DNA of 64,000 nucleotides, taken from the NCBI GenBank assembly GCA_965116875.1, contig OZ220733.1, positions 1,504,001-1,568,000 on the forward strand, in the 5' to 3' direction. The DNA is from Candidatus Latescibacterota bacterium (GTDB taxonomy: Bacteria > Latescibacterota > UBA2968 > GCA-2709665). This document shows positions 2,469-53,201 of the stretch, one piece after another. Positions within the stretch are counted from its first letter, which is position 1, and each line of letters opens with the position of its first letter. The notes below the pieces were generated by a model that was given only the letters and a program-made list of their open reading frames with translations, searched no databases and was not told where the DNA came from. Position numbers and translations under genes: made by a program.

Positions 2469-3968
2469 TCAACTCCTGTTTCGCAGCAGGTCAACCAGAA
2501 GGCGCACACCCACGCCCGTGCCGCCCCTGGGAACGTACGGCAGGTCCTTGTTCGCCCAGGCCGTGCCGGCAATGTCCAGGTGAGCCCAGGGAAAGTCCTG
2601 CACGAAGGCTTCGATGAACGCCGCGCCCGTGATGGCGCCACCCGCGCGGCCGCCGGTGTTCTTCAGATCGGCAACGTCGCTCTTCATCTCCTCCCGATGG
2701 CCGTCCAGAACGGGAAGGCGCCACGCGATTTCATCCGTCCTTTCTCCTGCAGCCGCAATTTCAGCCGCCAGTGCGTCGTCGTTTGAGAAGAGCCCGCTGG
2801 CCTCGTGTCCCAGGGCGATGACGCATGCGCCGGTGAGGGTGGCAAGATCGATCGCCGCGGAGGGTTTGTAGCGGGCGGCATAGGCCACGGCGTCGGCCAG
2901 GACCAGGCGGCCTTCGGCGTCCGTAGACCGGATTTCGATGGTTTTTCCCAGCATGGAGCGGACAATGTCGCCCGGCTTGAGCGCGCGACTGCCGGGCATG
3001 TTTTCCGAGGCGGCCACAAGGCCGATCGTGCGTACCGGCAAATCCAGCCGCGCCACAGCCTGCATCGCGCCGATGACGGCGGCGGCGCCTCCCATGTCGA
3101 ACTTCATATCCCACATGCCCTCGGAGCCCTTGATGGAAATGCCGCCGGAATCGAATGTAATCCCCTTTCCAATCAGCACCGCCGGCGCCGCTTCCGGATC
3201 ATCGCCCTCGTGTTCAAGAACAATGAACCTGGGGGGTTGCGCGCTGCCCTGCGCCACCGCCTGGATGGTGCGCATGCCTTCGCCTGCAATCCGCTCCTCG
3301 TCGAAGATCTCGCACCGCAGACCCGTTTCATGGGCCATGGTTTCGGCCCGTCCGGCGAGTATGGCGGGTGTCATTTCGTTTCCCGGATGGCTTCCCAGGT
3401 CCCGGGCCAGGCACGCGGCTTCGGCGATGATTCGCCCCGCATCCGAACCGTTTTCAACATCGGTCTTTTTGCCCGCATCGAATTCGACCAGTGTAAGTCC
3501 TTCCAATTCGTTATTGTCGTCGTCGTCCGCGGTCTTGTACGGCGTAAAGCGGTACGTCCCGAGAACGGCGCCCTCGACAACGGCCTGGGCCGCGGCTGAG
3601 ACGTCCAGACCACCCACCCCGCCGCCGTGAACCAACGTGGCCAGCTGTTCCGCGCCCAGGCCGCGGGCGTGACGCGCCGCGGCGGCGGAGACCTGCCGTA
3701 CCCGGTCGAGGGTGAATTCCTCGCGTTTGCCAAGACCAACAAGAAGGAGACGCTTCGCGGAAATGCCATCCCGCGGATAGAGTACGGCAATCTGTTTGAA
3801 CTTTCCCGTGAAATCGCCGGTTTCAATCAGCTCCCGGACCTGGCCGTTCAGTGCGGCGTCCACCGCGCCGGTGGCGCCGCCGGGTACCGTGACGCCCTCG
3901 AACAGATTCAGCACAATCGCGTCCGTTTCCCACTCTACGATGTTTTCAATCGCTACGGATATGTCCAC
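2469..3968 (-). CDS. pepA: leucyl aminopeptidase (M17)
   Basis: GKGITFDSGG, MKFDMGG, STDAEGRL, DLATLTGA, HLDIAG motifs; GTG start at 3968 after AGGAGG. Confidence 0.95.
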   Translation of the reverse strand: MDISVAIENIVEWETDAIVLNLFEGVTVPGGATGAVDAALNGQVRELIETGDFTGKFKQIAVLYPRDGISAKRLLLVGLGKREEFTLDRVRQVSAAAARHARGLGAEQLATLVHGGGVGGLDVSAAAQAVVEGAVLGTYRFTPYKTADDDDNNELEGLTLVEFDAGKKTDVENGSDAGRIIAEAACLARDLGSHPGNEMTPAILAGRAETMAHETGLRCEIFDEERIAGEGMRTIQAVAQGSAQPPRFIVLEHEGDDPEAAPAVLIGKGITFDSGGISIKGSEGMWDMKFDMGGAAAVIGAMQAVARLDLPVRTIGLVAASENMPGSRALKPGDIVRSMLGKTIEIRSTDAEGRLVLADAVAYAARYKPSAAIDLATLTGACVIALGHEASGLFSNDDALAAEIAAAGERTDEIAWRLPVLDGHREEMKSDVADLKNTGGRAGGAITGAAFIEAFVQDFPWAHLDIAGTAWANKDLPYVPRGGTGVGVRLLVDLLRNRS

Positions 3969-44826: not shown

Positions 44827-46548
44827 CTATACAATCCGTTGTCCCCGGCGGCCGGTTTCCCGCCCGGGGCGAATGGGGGAAGCGCGCACGACGTTTTCGG
44901 GATCGTAATCGAGGAGCTTGAGCCAGTCTTCCGTGTTATCGGTGGGCGGGAAGATCTCGTTCTCCGTGTATTCGGTCTCCACCGCCTGGAGCAGATCGTC
45001 CTGGGAGATGCCCTCTTCCTGTCCGGACGCGATGGAGCGGCGGATGGCCATCTCTTTCGCGCGTCTTACGATGGATTCCATGATCGCCCCGCTGGCCAGG
45101 TCCCCCCGGCGGAGGACGTCCTTCCGGCCGCTTCTGAGGGTCACTTCGAGAAATCTCGTATGGTCCCGTTTCGAGAAGATCTCTTCCGCCGTACGCGCGA
45201 CGAGCGTGTCCACGGCCGCGGCGCTGTCCCCGCCGTGTTCCTCCAGCGTCCTGCCGTCGATGGGTAGATTGGGCGTCAGATAGATCTTGAGGATGTCGAG
45301 CGCGCCATAGCGGTCCGGACGCTTCACCTTGATCTTCCGGTCGATCCTTCCCGGCCGCAAAATCGCGGGGTCGATCAGGTCGGGCCGGTTGGACGCCAGT
45401 ATGATCACCACGTCCTGCAGCGACTCGATGCCGTCCATCTCCGAACAGAACATCGGCACGACGGTATTCGAAATGCTGTGCGACCGCATGGCACGGCGCG
45501 TGCCAAGAACGGACTCCGCCTCGTCGATGAATACCACGGGCAGGTACCCCTCCTTGCGCTTTTCCCGCGCCCTGGAGAAGATTTCCCGGATCTGGCGTTC
45601 GGACTCGCCCAGCCACATGTTGAGGATTTCCGGCCCCTTGATGTTCATGAAACATTCCTTCAGGTCCAGACCGGCCTCCTGCTGGGCCTGCTTGACGAGG
45701 TTGTAGGCGGTTGCCTTGCCGATCAGCGTCTTGCCGCAGCCCGGCGGACCGTAGAGCAGAAAGCCCTTGGGAACGCTGTACTGGAACCTGGAGAACAGGT
45801 CCGGATGCAACGCCGGCATTTCGATCGTATCCTGGATGGCCCGGATGGCCTCGTCCTGCCCGCCGATTTTCTCCCAGGGCAGATTCGGAATCTCTTCGAG
45901 GAAGTAGTCTTTCGCCTCTTTTTCGGGCATGCGTTCCAGCGCCACGCGGAAGTTCGGGTCCACGCGAACCTCGTCGCCCGTCTTCAGGGACGCCTGTACG
46001 AGGTCGCTCGATCGCGACAGCACGTTGACCTGGCCGCCCGGTTCCTGTCCGACCCGCAGCCGCCCGTCTTCGAGGACGTCGGATATCTTCGCGACCTGGC
46101 CGGAACTCGTAAAGCCCAGGTCGCCAACGATGGCGAACGCGTCGTTGACGAGCACCCGCGTGCCCACCTTCAACGCCTCCTGTTCCAGGCGCGAATCGAC
46201 GTTGGCGAAGTATTCCGAGCCGCCCACGCTGATGTACGCCACGCCGTCGCGGGGAGATTCCAGGAGCGTACCCACGCGGTTGGCCGGCGCCGTTACCTTC
46301 TCCAGCGCGGCCTCCATCTCCACGATGGTCCGCCTGGCCTCCTCGAACGTGATCTCGTCCTCCTGAAGCTGCCGGCGGAGATGGTAGAGCATTGGACGCC
46401 GTTTGTCCTTTTCGTCCATCGACATCAGGATCTGGTCGATAATGGACAGGGACCGGAACGTGTGCTGCATATCCACGTAGTCCTGCAGAAAGTCATCCGG
46501 CGACTTTCGCTGGCGAGATCCTTCGTTCGGGCCGTTAATGGGACTCAC
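44827..46548 (-). CDS. arc: proteasome AAA+ ATPase (ARC/Mpa)
   Basis: N-terminal coiled coil, OB region, GPPGCGKT, IKGPEIL, VFIDE, DPAILRPGR, ENEIFPPT; start approximate. Confidence 0.93.
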   Translation of the reverse strand: MSPINGPNEGSRQRKSPDDFLQDYVDMQHTFRSLSIIDQILMSMDEKDKRRPMLYHLRRQLQEDEITFEEARRTIVEMEAALEKVTAPANRVGTLLESPRDGVAYISVGGSEYFANVDSRLEQEALKVGTRVLVNDAFAIVGDLGFTSSGQVAKISDVLEDGRLRVGQEPGGQVNVLSRSSDLVQASLKTGDEVRVDPNFRVALERMPEKEAKDYFLEEIPNLPWEKIGGQDEAIRAIQDTIEMPALHPDLFSRFQYSVPKGFLLYGPPGCGKTLIGKATAYNLVKQAQQEAGLDLKECFMNIKGPEILNMWLGESERQIREIFSRAREKRKEGYLPVVFIDEAESVLGTRRAMRSHSISNTVVPMFCSEMDGIESLQDVVIILASNRPDLIDPAILRPGRIDRKIKVKRPDRYGALDILKIYLTPNLPIDGRTLEEHGGDSAAAVDTLVARTAEEIFSKRDHTRFLEVTLRSGRKDVLRRGDLASGAIMESIVRRAKEMAIRRSIASGQEEGISQDDLLQAVETEYTENEIFPPTDNTEDWLKLLDYDPENVVRASPIRPGRETGRRGQRIV

Positions 46549-46574
46549 CTCCGGGATCCAGGGGTTTGCGAACC

Positions 46575-47477
46575 CTAATCGTCCATTTCACGTTTGAAAG
46601 ACAGCTTCATCTTGGCGCCGGCGTTCTCCACTTTGACATTGCCACGGATCACGGTGACGTCCACGTCCTTGAACGACATCTTGATTTCATGCCCGATGAC
46701 GATTCCCCGGTTCACGTCAATGGTCCACTTGCCCTTTCCCTCGCCCGTGCCTTCCACCATGATCGACACCGCGTTGGAGAATACCCACCCCCGGTACCGC
46801 ATCTGCCGGGTCTCGTCTATCAGCGCGACCCGGCGGCCCTTCTTCTTTGCCAGCCGCTTCAGAACGTAGACGCTGTTGATCTCCACCGAGCCTTTGTCCT
46901 GCAGGGCCGCGATGGGAATCTCATGGCGCCGAATTCCGTTCCACGAATCTCCCGATCCGACCTCCCTTTTGGGCAGGACGGGATGGATCTCCGGCACCCA
47001 GAGCTGCTGCAAATCGGTGATCGCGGCTTCGCGGCGCACCTCGTACGGCTTGAAACCGGGTTTGAACCCCGTCACGTCGCCCGTTGCGGTTACGTTCCAC
47101 GAAAACGTCCGGCCGTTGAACATGCCGAGCAGATACGGAAAGTTGGTTTCGCTGATCTGAACGCGGTCCTCCATGACCGTACTTTCGGCATTCCGGACCG
47201 TTGCCGTAACCGTCGCGGCGGTTGCGTCAATCGCGGTGACGGCTTCCCTGCTCTTCCACTTTCCGTAGGTCCGGACGTCAACCGTGCCGGACGTCTTGTC
47301 GTCGTCGATCAGGTCGGCGCGGCCGCTGTAGTATTCCAGCGTCCAGGAATTCTTGTAAAGATTCGATTGCCCTGCTTTATACACGAAATTGAGCGCCACC
47401 TTCTCGCCGTACACCGTGCCCGCGGGAACAGCCAGGGCGAATGGAATTATCAGGCAGAGAAAACGATACCGGACCAT
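46575..47477 (-). CDS. secreted beta-rich hypothetical protein
   Basis: signal peptide MVRYRFLCLIIPFALAVPA; LPKREVGSGDSW motif; ATG 47477 after GGAGGG. Confidence 0.65.
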   Translation of the reverse strand: MVRYRFLCLIIPFALAVPAGTVYGEKVALNFVYKAGQSNLYKNSWTLEYYSGRADLIDDDKTSGTVDVRTYGKWKSREAVTAIDATAATVTATVRNAESTVMEDRVQISETNFPYLLGMFNGRTFSWNVTATGDVTGFKPGFKPYEVRREAAITDLQQLWVPEIHPVLPKREVGSGDSWNGIRRHEIPIAALQDKGSVEINSVYVLKRLAKKKGRRVALIDETRQMRYRGWVFSNAVSIMVEGTGEGKGKWTIDVNRGIVIGHEIKMSFKDVDVTVIRGNVKVENAGAKMKLSFKREMDD

Positions 47478-47570
47478 GGTTCCCTCCGTAGACGATGGTG
47501 GAAAACGGTTTGGATAGAAAATGTAATGGCGACCATGTTGCATAAGTATAGCCCGGTGTTTTTGGAATGT

Positions 47571-49100
47571 CAACCCGTACCGTGATTCGTGTGATTACTA
47601 TGATAAGGGCTGATTAAAACCATGGAGGGACTTTGGGGGAGTGTTTGTGCTCGTTATTATCATACCCCACAATCACGCAAATCACAGGCCAACCCGTACT
47701 GTGATTTGTGTGATTACTATGATAAGAGCTGATTAAAACCACGGAGAGACTTTGGAGGATTGACAATGATTAACGGGATTTGCGGAATGCACCGTCATCG
47801 CGCAACCGACCCCCCGTGATTCGTGTGATTACTATGATAAGAGCTGATTAAAACCAATTCAAAAAACTGCGACGCGACGAGAACACGTGAAACGGGGCGC
47901 AAAGGTCGTACAGGAGGACGTTCTTTCAGTTCACGTCCAGTTGACCTGGTTTGTCCTGTTCATCCGCAGCTGAATCGCCCTTATTCGAATTAACGTACCC
48001 GAAAAAATACGAATCATGGTTAAAACGATGGAGGGACTTTGGGGGATTGACAATGATTAACGGGATTTGCGGGAGGATGGGATGGCGGGGTTGCCCTGGG
48101 CGCGTTGTTTGAAACTCTGGTTGGTAACTCTTTTGAATTCCAGGCTTTTTGCGCCGAAATTGACGAGTAGACCAACCTCCAGATCGTACGCCTCGAGGTA
48201 GTTGATGGCCTGTGCCAGGTGGACGTCCTGTAGTTCGATCACCGCCTTCAATTCAACACAGACGACGCCTTCCACCAGGAAATCGGCCCTTCTCGTGCCT
48301 ATCTGCCTTCCTTTGAAAAAAATGGGCATTTTATGCTCGCGGCTGAAGGAAAACCCTTGACATTCCATTTCGATCTCCAACGCTTTCTGATAAATGAACT
48401 CCTGGAACCCGTTGCCCAGCGCGGAATGCACCGTCATGGCGCAGCCGATGATCTTCGCCGTAAGCGCAGAATGTTTGTGCTCCTCATTAATCATACCCGA
48501 CATTCATGCAAATCACAGGCCAACCCGTACTGTGATTCGTGTGATTATTGTGATAAAAGCTGATTAACCCAAATTCGAAAAGACGGCAACCGGGTGTCGT
48601 GTTAAAACCCTCCGAAACGGGGCGTAAACGTCGTTAGGAAGGACATTTTTCCGTTTACGTCCAGTGACCAGATGTATCCTGGTAATCCGCAGTTGAATCG
48701 CCTTTATTCGAATTAACGTACCCGAAAAAATACGAACCATGGTTAAAACGATGGAGGGACTTTGGGGGAGTGATTGTGCTCGTTATTAATCATACCCAAC
48801 ATTCGGGGAAATCACAGGCCAACCCGTACTGTGATTTGTGTGATTATTATGATAAGAGCTGATTAAAACCAATTCGAAAAGACGGCAACCGGGTGTCGTG
48901 TTAAAACCCTCCGAAACGGGGCGCAAAGGTCGTCCAGGAGGACGTTCTTTCAGTTCACGTCCAAGGGACCTGGTTTGTCCTGTTCATCCGCAGTTGAATC
49001 GCCCTTTTTCGAATTAACGTACCCGAAAAAATACGAGTCATGGTTAAAACGATGGAGGGACTTTGGAGGAATGACAATGATTAACGGGATCTGCGGGGAT
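47571..49100. repeat. five-unit modular tandem repeat array containing the GxxExxY gene
   Basis: anchor GTGATTYGTGTGATTAYTRTGATAA starts at 47582, 47701, 47816, 48532, 48831; ~180-bp module at 47856, 48571, 48871; GGACTTTGGRGGA-like module five times. Confidence 0.92.
48057..48494 (-). CDS. GxxExxY family PD-(D/E)XK nuclease
   Basis: GFQEFIY motif, ADFLV, VELKA, QAINYL, GLLVNFG; start 48494 or 48503. Confidence 0.92.
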   Translation of the reverse strand: MINEEHKHSALTAKIIGCAMTVHSALGNGFQEFIYQKALEIEMECQGFSFSREHKMPIFFKGRQIGTRRADFLVEGVVCVELKAVIELQDVHLAQAINYLEAYDLEVGLLVNFGAKSLEFKRVTNQSFKQRAQGNPAIPSSRKSR

Positions 49101-49337
49101 TTAGAAGATTTCCTGCTATGACTGAACAATATTACTTGACAACAACGCGTCATTTGCCGGTATTCGGGGTACCGCAGCAACATGCTTTCGCATTTTGTGC
49201 CATTTCCGGTTTCGGGTTTCCGATTCCGATCGCGTTTCTCAGGTATAGAATGCGGCTGCATCGGCACCCGTCAGCCTCACGTCCATAGCCGTTTCAGGCG
49301 ACCTTTGTACCGTCCGGATCATGAAAAGGGCCGAAAG

Positions 49338-51338
49338 ATGAGACTTCTCGCCCCCCTGTTCTTATTGTTGTCGGTCTGTATTCAGAAGCTTCCCGCCCAG
49401 GAAATCGGCGAGCCGATACCGGTCGAAATCGCCGAGAATTCAACGACACTGACCCTTGATTTCTCAAACCACGACTACCAGTTGATCCTCTATTCCATTG
49501 ATACGCATCTGGAAAACAGCAGTGTCGGGCTCAAGAGTCCGTTGGGCTACTCAGTGACCGCCGCTTTCGGCGCTTCGAATCCCGTTTTGGATGGCGGATT
49601 GGACCCCAGTCCGCAAGCGCCCGTTTCCAACCGTGCCAGTTTCGAAAGTATGTTGCGAGCACAGGAACGGAAACTTGCGAGCCGCCTGCAGGAATCCGGC
49701 GGCTACCGCCCGCCCGCGGCCAAGGTCTCCCCACAACAAATCGGCAGCACCCGGCAGTTCGTCTTTCCCGCATTCCGAGGTGTCTCGAAAACTACAGTTA
49801 CAGCGTCTCTTGTCGCCTCCGGCGAACGCGCGAATGCCTATGTGGACGTGACCGACGTCAACAAAATGAATGCTGACTCGCTCCAGGCGCAGGTCGACCG
49901 CTTCAGCGAAACAATCTATCCCATTGTCACGTCAGCATTCGGACCGGCTTCGGACGTGGATAACGATGGCAGGATCCACTTTCTCTATACCAATCTCGTA
50001 AACCCGGATGAATCCATTTTCGGCGCGGCCGGGTTCTTTCATGCCCCGTCGTTGCTAACCGTGAGTCAGGGAGGCAATGGTAATCTTTCCGATATGTTTT
50101 ATATCGACCCGGACTCCGATCCACGGAAAGTCGATGCCGTACTCGCACACGAATTTCAACATCTCATCAATTTCAATCAGCGCGTACTCGTTCGCAACGG
50201 ACAACCGGAAGTTCTCTGGCTCAATGAGGGGCTATCACACTACTGTGAAAACCTTATTGGCGAGAACTTCTTCAATGAATCGAATGCCGATTTCTTCCTC
50301 GATTATACCGGCAGCGGTCCATTGGTTACAAACGGGTCTTGTGTACGGAGGAGTCGTGGAGCCCTTTATCTTTTCGTACAAAGCCTTGTTGAGGAGTTTG
50401 GCTCAGGAATCGTGTCACGGCTGGTGCAAACCGACAAGACGGGTATTGAAAATCTAGAGGCCGCAACGGGCCGTCGATTTGGCGACATTTTCGACAGGCA
50501 CGTTTCGAGGCTGTTTTTGAGTGGATTGGGCCTCAACGCAAAACTCAACTATACGTCCGCGCCTCTTGCAGACGAAATCTCGCACGCTCGGGCATTTCCC
50601 CTCCCCACTCAGCCTGTAATCTGGCCGAAAGGCGGGTACCAGATCTATGACGGCGGCGGGTTCGATCCTGTCTTTCGGAGCGATGCGCACACGGTCACGG
50701 TCAAAGGGCTTTTGCATCAACTCTCACCCATGTACATTCGTTTGACGGGAAACCGGAAGCCCACGACGATTACCATTCAAACTGATCCGGATGGCGAATT
50801 CCGGGCCCAACTCATTCCCATACCCATCAATTATCAGCCGCGCATCGCGATACCCTCGAAATATTCGCCCCGCGCGACCTTCGATCCGCCCCTGCCGTTT
50901 CGGTTCCGGACAGGGCAGGCCATCTCCATAAGCGGGACCACATCCGATGCGGCGCCGTCCGGAATGGTTGATTTCCACTTTGAAAACGCCTTGAGAGAGA
51001 TCCGATTCCGTGCACCCGTTGCCGAGGGTCGGTTCAACAAACGGCTCTTTTTCTATCCGGATGAAGCAGGAAGATACACGCTTCGCATTGGCGTAAATAG
51101 GTACTTTTCAACGACATACAACGCGATGGTCGTATTACGGGGGGAACCCCCTTCTCCGGACTTCGACCGTGACGGAACTGTCGGATTCGCGGATTTCATC
51201 GTGTTTGCGCGAGCATTCGGCAAGTCCTGGGCCGACGAGGATTTCGAACCCTGGTTCGACCTGGACCTGGACGGCGAAGTTGGATTCTCCGACTTTCTGA
51301 TATTCGGGGAGGCTTTTGGTACGAACGGACTGCAATGA
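49338..51338 (+). CDS. secreted Zn metallopeptidase (M30/hyicolysin-like) with one Ig-like module and dockerin-like C-terminus
   Basis: signal peptide, SDVDNDG, LAHEFQHL, WLNEGLS, C-terminal DFDRDGTVGFADF...DLDLDGEVGFSDF. Confidence 0.82.
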   Translation: MRLLAPLFLLLSVCIQKLPAQEIGEPIPVEIAENSTTLTLDFSNHDYQLILYSIDTHLENSSVGLKSPLGYSVTAAFGASNPVLDGGLDPSPQAPVSNRASFESMLRAQERKLASRLQESGGYRPPAAKVSPQQIGSTRQFVFPAFRGVSKTTVTASLVASGERANAYVDVTDVNKMNADSLQAQVDRFSETIYPIVTSAFGPASDVDNDGRIHFLYTNLVNPDESIFGAAGFFHAPSLLTVSQGGNGNLSDMFYIDPDSDPRKVDAVLAHEFQHLINFNQRVLVRNGQPEVLWLNEGLSHYCENLIGENFFNESNADFFLDYTGSGPLVTNGSCVRRSRGALYLFVQSLVEEFGSGIVSRLVQTDKTGIENLEAATGRRFGDIFDRHVSRLFLSGLGLNAKLNYTSAPLADEISHARAFPLPTQPVIWPKGGYQIYDGGGFDPVFRSDAHTVTVKGLLHQLSPMYIRLTGNRKPTTITIQTDPDGEFRAQLIPIPINYQPRIAIPSKYSPRATFDPPLPFRFRTGQAISISGTTSDAAPSGMVDFHFENALREIRFRAPVAEGRFNKRLFFYPDEAGRYTLRIGVNRYFSTTYNAMVVLRGEPPSPDFDRDGTVGFADFIVFARAFGKSWADEDFEPWFDLDLDGEVGFSDFLIFGEAFGTNGLQ

Positions 51339-51446: not shown

Positions 51447-52712
51447 ATGAGAATTTTGGCAAGTGCGTTCCTCCTGACATCACTCTGTCTGCAACCGCTG
51501 ACTTCGAACGGTCAATCCAACAGTACGATACCAAGAGATTTTTTCTCAGGGATCACGTTGGATGCGTCCGTGTCCGGCCCATTCCTGTCGTACATGCCGA
51601 TTCAAATTTCCGGTACCGTATCCGATCCTCTGATATCCGAGATCCAGTTTCGATTCCTGTACAACGACCATGAGGAAATAAACCAGTGTGGGGCGGCATA
51701 TTGGTACATGGTTCCGGTCCGTGACCAGGAATTCAAACATACGTTATTCTTCAATCACGAACAGGCAGATGAATACGTTCTGCAGTTGAACCTCAAACGG
51801 TGGAAGCCGCCATACTCCTCAGCAGGTGCGTTCCGTCCCTTCGCTGTTCAGAAAGGCCCTGAGATATCGCCGATTCCTGTCGGCTTCTTTTCCGACATCG
51901 AACTGGACTCACCGATCCCCGTTGAAATGATTACCGGTCAGGTTGTTCGTGTTTCCGCAACGGTATTCGACCCGGCGTTATACATGGTCAAGCTGCATTT
52001 CTACAATGAAGCCGGTGATTTTCCGATGTCGCACATAGTCCCGGTGATCGACGGTCGACTTAAAAAACCGATATTCCTGCCGCACAAAACAGCTGGTGTT
52101 TACACACTGGCACTGGAAAGGTTTCACTCCGGGAACACCGTACAAATAAGACGTGACGTCTTCGGCCCCATAAACGTGAAAGAAGGCGAGGGCGCCGCGT
52201 TCTTTCCTTTCGACTACTTCGAGGAAATCGAACTTACGTCGCCGATGCCAGTCGTCTTCGCGCTTGGACGAAAGGTTCGAGTTACCGGTATCGTTTCCGA
52301 TCCACTCGTGCGTCAAGTCGATTTTGAGTTCTTTATTCGCAAATCGGGCCAAAATTTCCCGGGCCTTGTCGTCTTCAGTTCACCTGTGACCAACGGCGAA
52401 TTCAGCATAGATACCGATTTTTCACTCGAACACGGCCACCGACCTGGCGATGGTTCGTTGAATGTATTTCTGTGGAGACGGGGTAACCGCTCGCTCGGCC
52501 CAAGAATATTCAGGCCAATTGCCCTCGAAGCACCCCCCAAGCCGGACTTCGACGGAGACGGGACGGTTGGGTTTCCGGATTTCATCCTGTTTGCAGGAGC
52601 GTTCGGCACGTCTTCAGAAGATCAGAATTTCGAATCCCGGTTCGACCTGAATGGCGATGGAACCGTTGATTTCGGCGACTTTCTAATCTTCGCGCAAGCA
52701 TTTGGACAGTGA
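51447..52712 (+). CDS. secreted protein with three Ig-like repeats and dockerin-like C-terminus
   Basis: AAGGAGG RBS, signal peptide, 3x FFxxIxLxxP..SDP repeat, DFDGDG/DLNGDG tail. Confidence 0.8.
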   Translation: MRILASAFLLTSLCLQPLTSNGQSNSTIPRDFFSGITLDASVSGPFLSYMPIQISGTVSDPLISEIQFRFLYNDHEEINQCGAAYWYMVPVRDQEFKHTLFFNHEQADEYVLQLNLKRWKPPYSSAGAFRPFAVQKGPEISPIPVGFFSDIELDSPIPVEMITGQVVRVSATVFDPALYMVKLHFYNEAGDFPMSHIVPVIDGRLKKPIFLPHKTAGVYTLALERFHSGNTVQIRRDVFGPINVKEGEGAAFFPFDYFEEIELTSPMPVVFALGRKVRVTGIVSDPLVRQVDFEFFIRKSGQNFPGLVVFSSPVTNGEFSIDTDFSLEHGHRPGDGSLNVFLWRRGNRSLGPRIFRPIALEAPPKPDFDGDGTVGFPDFILFAGAFGTSSEDQNFESRFDLNGDGTVDFGDFLIFAQAFGQ

Positions 52713-52722
52713 TAAGGGGCGA

Positions 52723-52900
52723 CTAAGACAGGCGGGAGGGCGGGAAGGTAAGGTTTCTCTGGGCGTGTTGTTTGTGCTTTCTGTTGTATACTCTCCTGAA
52801 TTCCAGGCCTTTTGCACCGAAGCTGATGAGCAGACCGACGTTGAGATCAGGTGTCTCGGGGTAGTTTTTGGCCCGCGACAGGTGGGCGTCCGACGTCGAT
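52723..52900 (-). pseudogene. GxxExxY nuclease remnant (C-terminal third)
   Basis: DAHLSRAKNYPETPDLNVGLLISFGAKGLEFRRV aligns with DVHLAQAINYLEAYDLEVGLLVNFGAKSLEFKRV; N-terminal motifs absent. Confidence 0.8.
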
Positions 52901-53201
52901 GCAAGTCTCAGGACAATCTCGAGATTGACTATAGTTGACCGCGATAGATCAGGAAGCTTGTCGAATTCAGTAGAGTTTCTGCTACGATTGGACAAAGTTA
53001 ATTGACAACAAACAGCGACTCACCGACCATTGTGCAATCGTGGCAACAGGATTGCACGCCCTGTGCCAATTCAGCTTAACGCTTACAGTGCCAAAGGCGT
53101 TTTTCGATGGCAGAACACAAGAAAAGTCATAAGAATCGCACCGAGAATGGGTCGGTTTCCACCGGCATGTGTACCTTAGAGGTCCTGAAAGGAGACGAGA
53201 G

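Follow-up and report, generated by a model that had tools for sequence, protein, structure and literature searches.

The described systems closest to the locus analyzed here are the free-standing homing endonuclease genes, such as the seg and mob genes of phage T4; I-Ssp6803I-type enzymes; insertion sequences with derivatives that resemble miniature inverted-repeat transposable elements (MITEs); RAYT/REPIN pairs, in which the enzyme is of the HUH (Y1) class and the REPINs are dispersed in hundreds of copies; type III toxin–antitoxin systems such as ToxIN, in which tandem repeats of ~36 nucleotides (nt) adjoin a nuclease gene; and the 23S rRNA intervening sequences that bear an open reading frame (ORF), where a small ORF lies within inverted repeats able to form a long stem in the longer transcript. 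The locus lies in a 64,000-nt stretch of the genome of a Candidatus Latescibacterota bacterium (assembly GCA_965116875.1, contig OZ220733.1, positions 1,504,001–1,568,000; the window, in what follows), where positions 47571–49100 hold an array of five head-to-tail units, one with an intact gene for a GxxExxY protein and four without. Based on sequence comparison, we conclude that repeats A, C and D of this array are the inverted ends of a GxxExxY cassette, and that the remaining repeat, B, is an independent MITE. The occurrence of the cassette across many phyla, mostly between restriction-modification (R-M) genes, suggests a little-known selfish gene cassette. We propose that the array itself probably arose by passive duplication and decay of this repeat-rich unit. 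GxxExxY proteins have been linked to 23S rRNA intervening sequences; the cassette, too, has a small ORF within inverted repeats, and it differs from these sequences in that it does not lie in rRNA.

The first-pass annotation, made from the letters of the window, had tied the repeats to the GxxExxY gene, and the flanks of homologous genes bear out this tie. Homologous proteins, 71–88% identical, are recorded under Bacteroidota, Cyanobacteria and other source names. We fetched 80 loci across phyla, with protein identities of 64–86%, of which 75 had the at least 150 nt on each side that made them usable. The motif GTCTGAAC (at most 1 mismatch) lies no more than 150 nt upstream of the gene in 55 of these 75 loci, and 31 of the 55 place it 35–38 nt before the ATG. 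Near the stop codon, GTTCAGAC is present in 58 loci, 22 of them at +6 or +7. Both motifs occur in 49/75 loci, each adjoined by TGATT repeats; in the rest of the loci the motif background is 0.048 per 150 nt. Alignment similarity on the left starts exactly at (T)GTCTGAAC, continues through three to four TGATT repeats and runs into an ATG ATT start. On the right, AATC repeats overlap the conserved C-terminal codons (NQGNPxI) and terminate in ACAGTTCAGACA. The cassette of the family consists of the gene between TGTCTGAAC with 3–4 TGATT repeats at ~9-nt spacing and the mirror image of these at the opposite end, for a total size of ~520 bp; its terminal inverted repeats start with TGT and end with ACA, and subterminal repeats follow inside them.

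End profiles from which the window's genus was left out recover the array. Within the window, the five A modules are the top five matches (E 0.005–0.07), and the D modules are matched on the minus strand; genome-wide, the top three matches are A modules. Left and right ends of the same locus resemble each other slightly more than ends paired between loci (55 of 2000 permutations reach the value), and this excess is not significant once the terminal 9 nt are left out (189/2000). Rfam scans of window positions 46500–50000 (E up to 1) and of the canonical L060 cassette gave nothing meaningful.

In the window, a direct-repeat search returns a five-copy family (repeat family D3) starting at 47582, 47701, 47816, 48532 and 48831. 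These are the five units, at spacings of 119, 115, 716 and 299 nt, that the first-pass annotation had described, and the composition that it gave for each of them (U1 to U5) is correct throughout by sequence and repeat comparison. Read on the minus strand, a unit starts with D (upstream region and start codon), continues with the ORF and closes with C and then A. The D and A modules are inverted relative to each other, and both carry TGTGATT-type repeats ~9 nt apart. A block of 185 nt, comprising B and C, is present in three copies within the array, and a block made of C and the 3' end of the gene (repeat family D5) in four. All modules except B lie on the minus strand.

U1 is a gene-less mini-cassette, A-C-D. 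Its A module (47571–47622; left-end profile E 0.0068, direct repeats, BLAST) is a right-end-like inverted repeat with TGATT repeats, its C module (47622–47640; repeat comparison) is the inner right-end segment, and its D module (47641–47689; repeat and end-profile comparison) is the left end with the first ~8 codons. U2 joins A (47690–47741; end profile E 0.0053, direct repeats, BLAST) and C to two gene fragments: the last ~25 nt of the gene, which directly adjoin C (together 47741–47781; repeat family D5), and a 28-nt internal piece (47782–47809; repeat family D8) that is 93% identical to 48421–48448 and has the same deletion form in congeners G008 and G005. The junction between U1 and U2 forms a strong palindrome (DNA fold z −6.8). 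U3, which is A-B-C-gene-D, begins with an A module lacking its outer 10 nt (47814–47855; BLAST, end profile), followed by a MITE copy on the plus strand (47854–48022; nhmmer E 5.5e-34) and by C directly after the stop codon (48026–48056; sequence and repeat comparison). The intact gene (48057–48503), the sole long ORF of the array, comes next, and its start codon is reached from the D module (48469–48520), a left end with TGATT repeats that the end profile matches on the minus strand at 48518–48482. U4 is a second mini-cassette, A-B-C-D, with A at 48521–48567 (BLAST, end profile), a plus-strand MITE copy with TTAA on each side at 48564–48745 (nhmmer, flanking 4-mers), C at 48749–48769 (repeat comparison) and D at 48770–48819 (repeat and end-profile comparison); like U1, it keeps both ends. 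U5 holds A (48820–48871; BLAST, end profile), a further plus-strand MITE copy (48869–49046; nhmmer), and C with the 3' end of the gene (49050–49100; sequence, repeats), where the array stops at a deletion junction into the spacer before a 718-aa gene.

The A copies are 71–98% identical over 52 nt, so the units diverge by 2–29% in this module. In a BLAST search of the whole 5.45-Mb genome, A modules match one another with E values of 1e-13 to 1e-21, which excludes chance similarity. The same searches show that A, C and D are confined to the locus (5/5 A matches and 9/9 A-C-D matches are local). The first-pass annotation had likened the array to RAYT/REPIN, and there is a resemblance, in that a single-copy nuclease gene is flanked by inverted palindromic repeats. 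The analogy fails because A, C and D are not dispersed but lie in one locus, where REPINs are scattered widely; moreover, the enzyme is not a HUH transposase, and the sole dispersed repeat, B, is an unrelated element.

Module B had been counted with A, C and D as one system. That grouping holds for A, C and D as cassette ends and not for B, which is a MITE with a 4-bp TTAA-type target duplication and no part of the nuclease system. When the whole region was searched against its own genome, 42 matches were returned, of which, the self match aside, only two short ones lay outside B. A 199-nt profile built from 25 dispersed full-length copies has 132 nhmmer matches genome-wide, 61 of them full length and 129 outside the locus. 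The element has terminal inverted repeats, starting with CCTCAATYCG and ending with CGAATCAAGG. Identical 4-mers stand outside both ends in 37 of 60 full copies, which identifies the target duplication; TTAA accounts for 23 and TTAG for 10, with TCAG, TTTA, TTGA and TCAA found once each, and even the variants other than TTAA agree at both ends. The array preserves both states of the insertion site: U1 and U2 have the empty site GCTGA-TTAA-AACCATGG, whereas U4 has the filled site GCTGA-TTAA-MITE-TTAA-AACGATGG, as expected for a MITE insertion. The three local copies have in common a 14-nt deletion that none of the 25 dispersed copies in the alignment has; B inserted once between A and C and was then copied with the unit. 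B-type matches were found in 13 of 14 congeners, among the matches listed, and annotation can now separate this genus-wide MITE from the nuclease system. A crude end-motif scan for an autonomous partner turned up no longer element. Shorter forms of ~110 and ~150 nt also occur, and ~100 additional matches to the 5'-end motif outside the profile matches suggest related subfamilies.

The intact gene of U3 (48057–48503, minus strand) probably starts at its second ATG, at 48494. Its product matches PF13366 (E 5.4e-38, 130.4 bits against a cut-off of 22) and TIGR04256, the GxxExxY profile (E 1.6e-39, 134.9 bits against a cut-off of 35). Residues G29, E32, Y35, D71, E81 and K83 are invariant in 22 aligned sequences, and E32, Y35, D71 and K83 are conserved in at least 90% of 69 diverse sequences. 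These profile matches and the presence of the catalytic D...E-x-K residues agree with the earlier assignment of GxxExxY proteins to the predicted PD-(D/E)XK nucleases. AlphaFold2, run on a shallow alignment, gave a poor model (predicted local distance difference test score, pLDDT, of 50), which was superseded by a run on the 69 diverse sequences with a pLDDT of 90.3. The best Foldseek neighbors of the model are Cas4 SSO0001 (E 2.7e-4, template-modeling score 0.52) and lambda-exonuclease/RecE-type nucleases, matches that are weak and inform at the level of fold only. Taken with the profiles, the model indicates that the protein has the PD-(D/E)XK, restriction-endonuclease-like fold. The ratio of nonsynonymous to synonymous substitutions, 0.08–0.18 against seven congeners, indicates that the intact copy is maintained by purifying selection. 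PADLOC, PHROGs and a sequence search of the PDB returned no match for the protein.

PF13366 has 14,726 representatives when clustered at 50% identity; among the top 150, 18 are proteins of 250–568 aa in which two tandemly duplicated GxxExxY domains are fused. A literature search on GxxExxY, PDDEXK_3 and PF13366 returned passing mentions only, with no function established, and one on type I R-M operons that contain small ORFs with inverted repeats returned nothing relevant by title or abstract. The table of a 2012 survey of the superfamily gives the function as unknown and notes multiple transfers (PMC3424549); 10.1101/2021.01.26.428298 is among the papers with a passing mention. The window's genome has two GxxExxY genes only, the second of which (L022, C1:4721948-4722271) is broken and flanked by inverted AACTACGAA-type repeats of 20–28 nt. 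In a Bacteroidota genome, a gene of a different subfamily (L129) forms an identical tandem pair 458 bp apart with a partial third copy and CGAATT-type flanking repeats. These other subfamilies are likewise bounded by inverted arrays of short repeats, and their motifs differ.

The surroundings of the cassette in other phyla point to a preferred position. An ATG within −4 to +15 nt of the right-end motif opens an ORF of at least 80 aa in 29/60 loci. According to Pfam, 19 of these 29 ORFs encode type I R-M proteins (6 HsdS, 5 HsdM, 2 HsdM-S fusions and 6 HsdR); the remainder are one each of RhuM, Fic, YhcG, a Schlafen-type protein, a phospholipase D (PLD)-helicase and MoeA, and four without a family. 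On the other side, in 30 loci a long ORF from upstream terminates within the left end, 18 times at the GTC TGA of the motif. A sample of 20 homologous HsdR loci of one order, drawn from 19 of 301 genomes searched, contains filled and empty sites: five loci hold a cassette that begins exactly at TGTCTGAAC, and 15 are cassette-free; in these, HsdR ends in ...AYE*, and the start of the following gene falls within the overlapping TATGAATAA or directly behind it. Mapped onto a tree of HsdR, the filled state takes four gains or losses, and well-supported branches make at least three of them necessary. L151 and L152 have, on the right side of the cassette, a diverged repeat of the last ~18 nt of hsdR (LAAYE and stop) with synonymous differences, which suggests that flanking R-M sequence was co-transferred with the cassette. 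In L097, the HsdR downstream of the cassette has a DUF559 domain (Vsr-like endonuclease) inserted where its N-terminal domain gives way to the motor domains.

Judged from these comparisons, the family has the appearance of a discrete insertion that has spread horizontally, and it is unlike a classical transposon in its behavior. It resembles insertion sequences with MITE-like derivatives in its terminal inverted repeats (degenerate in the window) and subterminal repeats, in its deleted copies U1 and U4, which keep both ends, and in its filled and empty hsdR junctions. It differs from them in that it has no known transposase class, no target duplication, a size of only ~520 bp and one or two copies per genome in the five genomes checked. 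With free-standing homing endonuclease genes it would have in common that a small nuclease ORF stands precisely between conserved genes, that its presence among homologous operons is patchy, that no target duplication is seen and that it has spread across phyla (64–86% identity). Here the differences are the long inverted ends with TGATT repeats and the PD-(D/E)XK GxxExxY enzyme. Unlike the T4 seg and mob genes, moreover, the cassette resides in cellular R-M operons; the subfamily occurs in only 8 of 72,556 plasmid records and in 0 of 50,697 phage records.

Within the genus, the locus is syntenic, lying between a 332-aa gene and the 718-aa gene, which encodes a secreted protein. Among 15 genomes, eight have an intact gene there, one has a remnant only, four have none and two have contig ends; in G003 and G004 the contigs end at the corresponding place. 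The remnant, in G008, is a deleted copy 96% identical to U2 of the window. G005 has an array of its own, with at least four units, a different insert and slightly different deletion junctions, and congeners with a single copy lack an array. In the orthologous spacers of G004 and G005 (L040, and L037 at 3240–3450), GGATTA-type repeats of 9–12 nt form arrays that resemble stretched TGATT end repeats; the L037 array is a 49-nt family in 11 copies. Arrays with truncated or internally deleted copies are also found at other loci, L054, L060 and L093: L060 has three units with a 7-nt junction, and L054 has four to five, one of them with an internal deletion and others truncated at the same position in the gene. 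Between lineages, the junction spacers measure 7, 11 and 21 nt.

Gene-less, one-ended A-C pieces with no D partner are found upstream of paralogous secreted-protein genes in 12/15 congeners, in 1–13 copies. They may be remnants carried along by duplication of the gene family, or may have turned regulatory. In the window, a second and separate cassette remnant (52731–52925, minus strand; BLAST), made of the C-terminal ~55 codons followed by a D-like end, lies upstream of a second paralogue of the 718-aa type. Since two secreted-protein paralogues are each preceded by a GxxExxY cassette or remnant, a larger segment was duplicated. The tandem family of secreted proteins (49339–51338, 51447–52712 and 53203 onward) has C-terminal repeats of the D-x-D-G-D-G type and weak matches to EF-hand and peptidase M1. 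On the other side of the array, a near-consensus promoter of the 332-aa gene (47541–47575, minus strand; TTGACA, 17 nt, TATACT) is conserved in congeners and abuts A1; its −35 element overlaps the outer bases of A1, and the internal junctions have TTGGCC instead. Further away, 44827–46548 (minus strand) encodes a proteasome-type AAA ATPase with Prot_ATP_ID_OB domains (Mpa/ARC-like).

We propose that the array would have begun with one illegitimate tandem duplication of the cassette and a few flanking bases, at CAA(C) microhomology. Unequal crossover between the repeated ends, with further deletions, would later have reshaped it, and internal deletions at short GCGG-type microhomologies would have removed most or all of the ORF from four units. 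The MITE entered a single time, at a TTAA inside the right end, and its later copies arose with those of the unit. We infer this order of events from the junctions. All three complete unit junctions read CACAGGC up to the join and CAACCCGTAC after it, bases that correspond to the right flank of single-copy cassettes (GGCC...) followed by their left flank (...GTCAACCCGTAC; CAACCCGTAC at the junction). The presence of the same flanking host bases at three junctions argues for one segmental duplication followed by unequal crossover, rather than for repeated insertion. The internal deletions do join at GCGG-type microhomologies, and the divergence among the A modules indicates that the array is not a recent burst.

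Several observations weigh against this account or the cassette on which it builds. The bases common to the junctions could be degenerate termini of the element rather than host flank. Each A module, taken genome-wide, reaches an E value of only ~0.5; profile matches to the window's ends start at model position 8–9; and the terminal 9-mer TGTCTGAAC is not recognizable in the window's genus (L049–L051 are without the motif), so that it is the subterminal repeats that carry the end match. Cassettes show no regular target duplication, with 2/49 matching flanking 4-mers against a permutation mean of 1.0, and hence no support for mobility by transposition. The gene-less A-C pieces fit a regulatory role as well as they fit remnants. 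Arrays do occur at L054, L060 and L093, but local self-copies of the gene show no significant enrichment: they were seen in 11/80 loci versus 48/320 for random neighboring DNA, and under a strict self-copy test in 3/80 versus 12/480. Lastly, in two public runs searched as unitigs, neither a read nor a contig extends over the whole array, which leaves the unit order resting on the assembly.

This last point, together with the contigs of G003 and G004 that stop at the corresponding place, is what could be said for an assembly artefact, which we consider highly improbable. In both runs, which come from two studies and one of which is possibly the source sample, every unit-specific junction is covered by unitigs with zero mismatches and at even, single-copy depth (~4x and ~17x). 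The units also differ from one another in sequence, and related arrays exist in G005 and in other phyla. The nuclease might itself have built the array, by acting on its own TGATT-repeat ends so that new copies arose beside or inside old ones. Head-to-tail arrays with right-end/left-end junctions in unrelated lineages, as well as in G005, would fit such amplification, as would the identical tandem pair in a different subfamily, the two-domain fusions, the retention of both ends in U1 and U4 and the palindromic U1/U2 junction. We nonetheless regard it as unlikely, and favor passive duplication and decay, because the three complete junctions are identical down to their flank-like bases and junction spacers vary by lineage, and because divergent units and a U2 that is 96% identical in another species speak against a recent burst; the lack of enrichment, of target duplications and of dispersed copies in the window's own genome points the same way. 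The first-pass annotation's picture of an autonomous unit with non-autonomous copies is therefore retained in part: one copy is intact and the rest are deleted copies of its own cassette, but amplification by the nuclease is, on the grounds just given, unlikely.

The A-C repeats could alternatively be mainly regulatory, serving as a promoter or operator that the GxxExxY gene and the secreted-protein genes have in common, with TGATT sites for a DNA-binding protein; in that case the array would consist of a regulatory repeat that has expanded, along with debris of the gene. The periodic placement of A-C pieces upstream of paralogues, at ~2–3 kb, a locus where A-C ends ~25 nt before a signal-peptide ORF, and the TGATT-like repeats at 9–12-nt spacing that occupy the corresponding intergenic region of G004 and G005 are all compatible with this idea. 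It is made distinctly doubtful by the inverted arrangement of the same motifs around the gene in distant phyla, where they are gained and lost together with it, and by the overlap of right-end repeats with conserved C-terminal codons. The first-pass annotation's own alternative, a nuclease paired with repeat-encoded RNAs as in type III toxin–antitoxin loci, has in its favor that repeats adjoin a nuclease gene, as in ToxIN, and has very little chance of being correct. The units are 115–716 nt rather than ~36 nt, contain gene fragments and a MITE, and flank the gene on both sides; the protein is of the PD-(D/E)XK type and not ToxN-like; the Rfam scan found no match; and congeners with a single copy have no array. 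An integron cassette was rejected as well: the units bear the ends of the cassette itself, and inspection of the junctions by eye showed no attC-like core, although an integrase gene was not searched for.

One tentative possibility, which at present we hold to be short of probable, is that this GxxExxY subfamily represents an unrecognized class of ~520-bp autonomous selfish cassettes, whose nuclease would recognize its own TGATT inverted ends and insert the cassette exactly at type I R-M gene junctions, with arrays of full and deleted copies as footprints of its activity. Binding or cutting of the TGATT ends by the nuclease is, like the course of the duplication, what we infer from the sequences. 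Such a cassette would supply the upstream gene with a stop codon (GTC TGA, in the left end) and abut the ATG of the downstream gene, so that the host operon would keep working.

A GxxExxY family whose function is not established thereby gains a testable frame, in which one widespread subfamily takes the form of a discrete cassette, bounded by inverted repeats and conserved at its ends. The cassette frame would explain the 64–86% protein identity across phyla, and it would also account for the conservation of the C-terminal tail, the codons of which serve at the same time as end repeats. The precise insertion points in type I R-M operons and the filled and empty sites suggest both candidate substrates for the enzyme, namely the TGATT-repeat ends, and a candidate lifestyle, selfish insertion.

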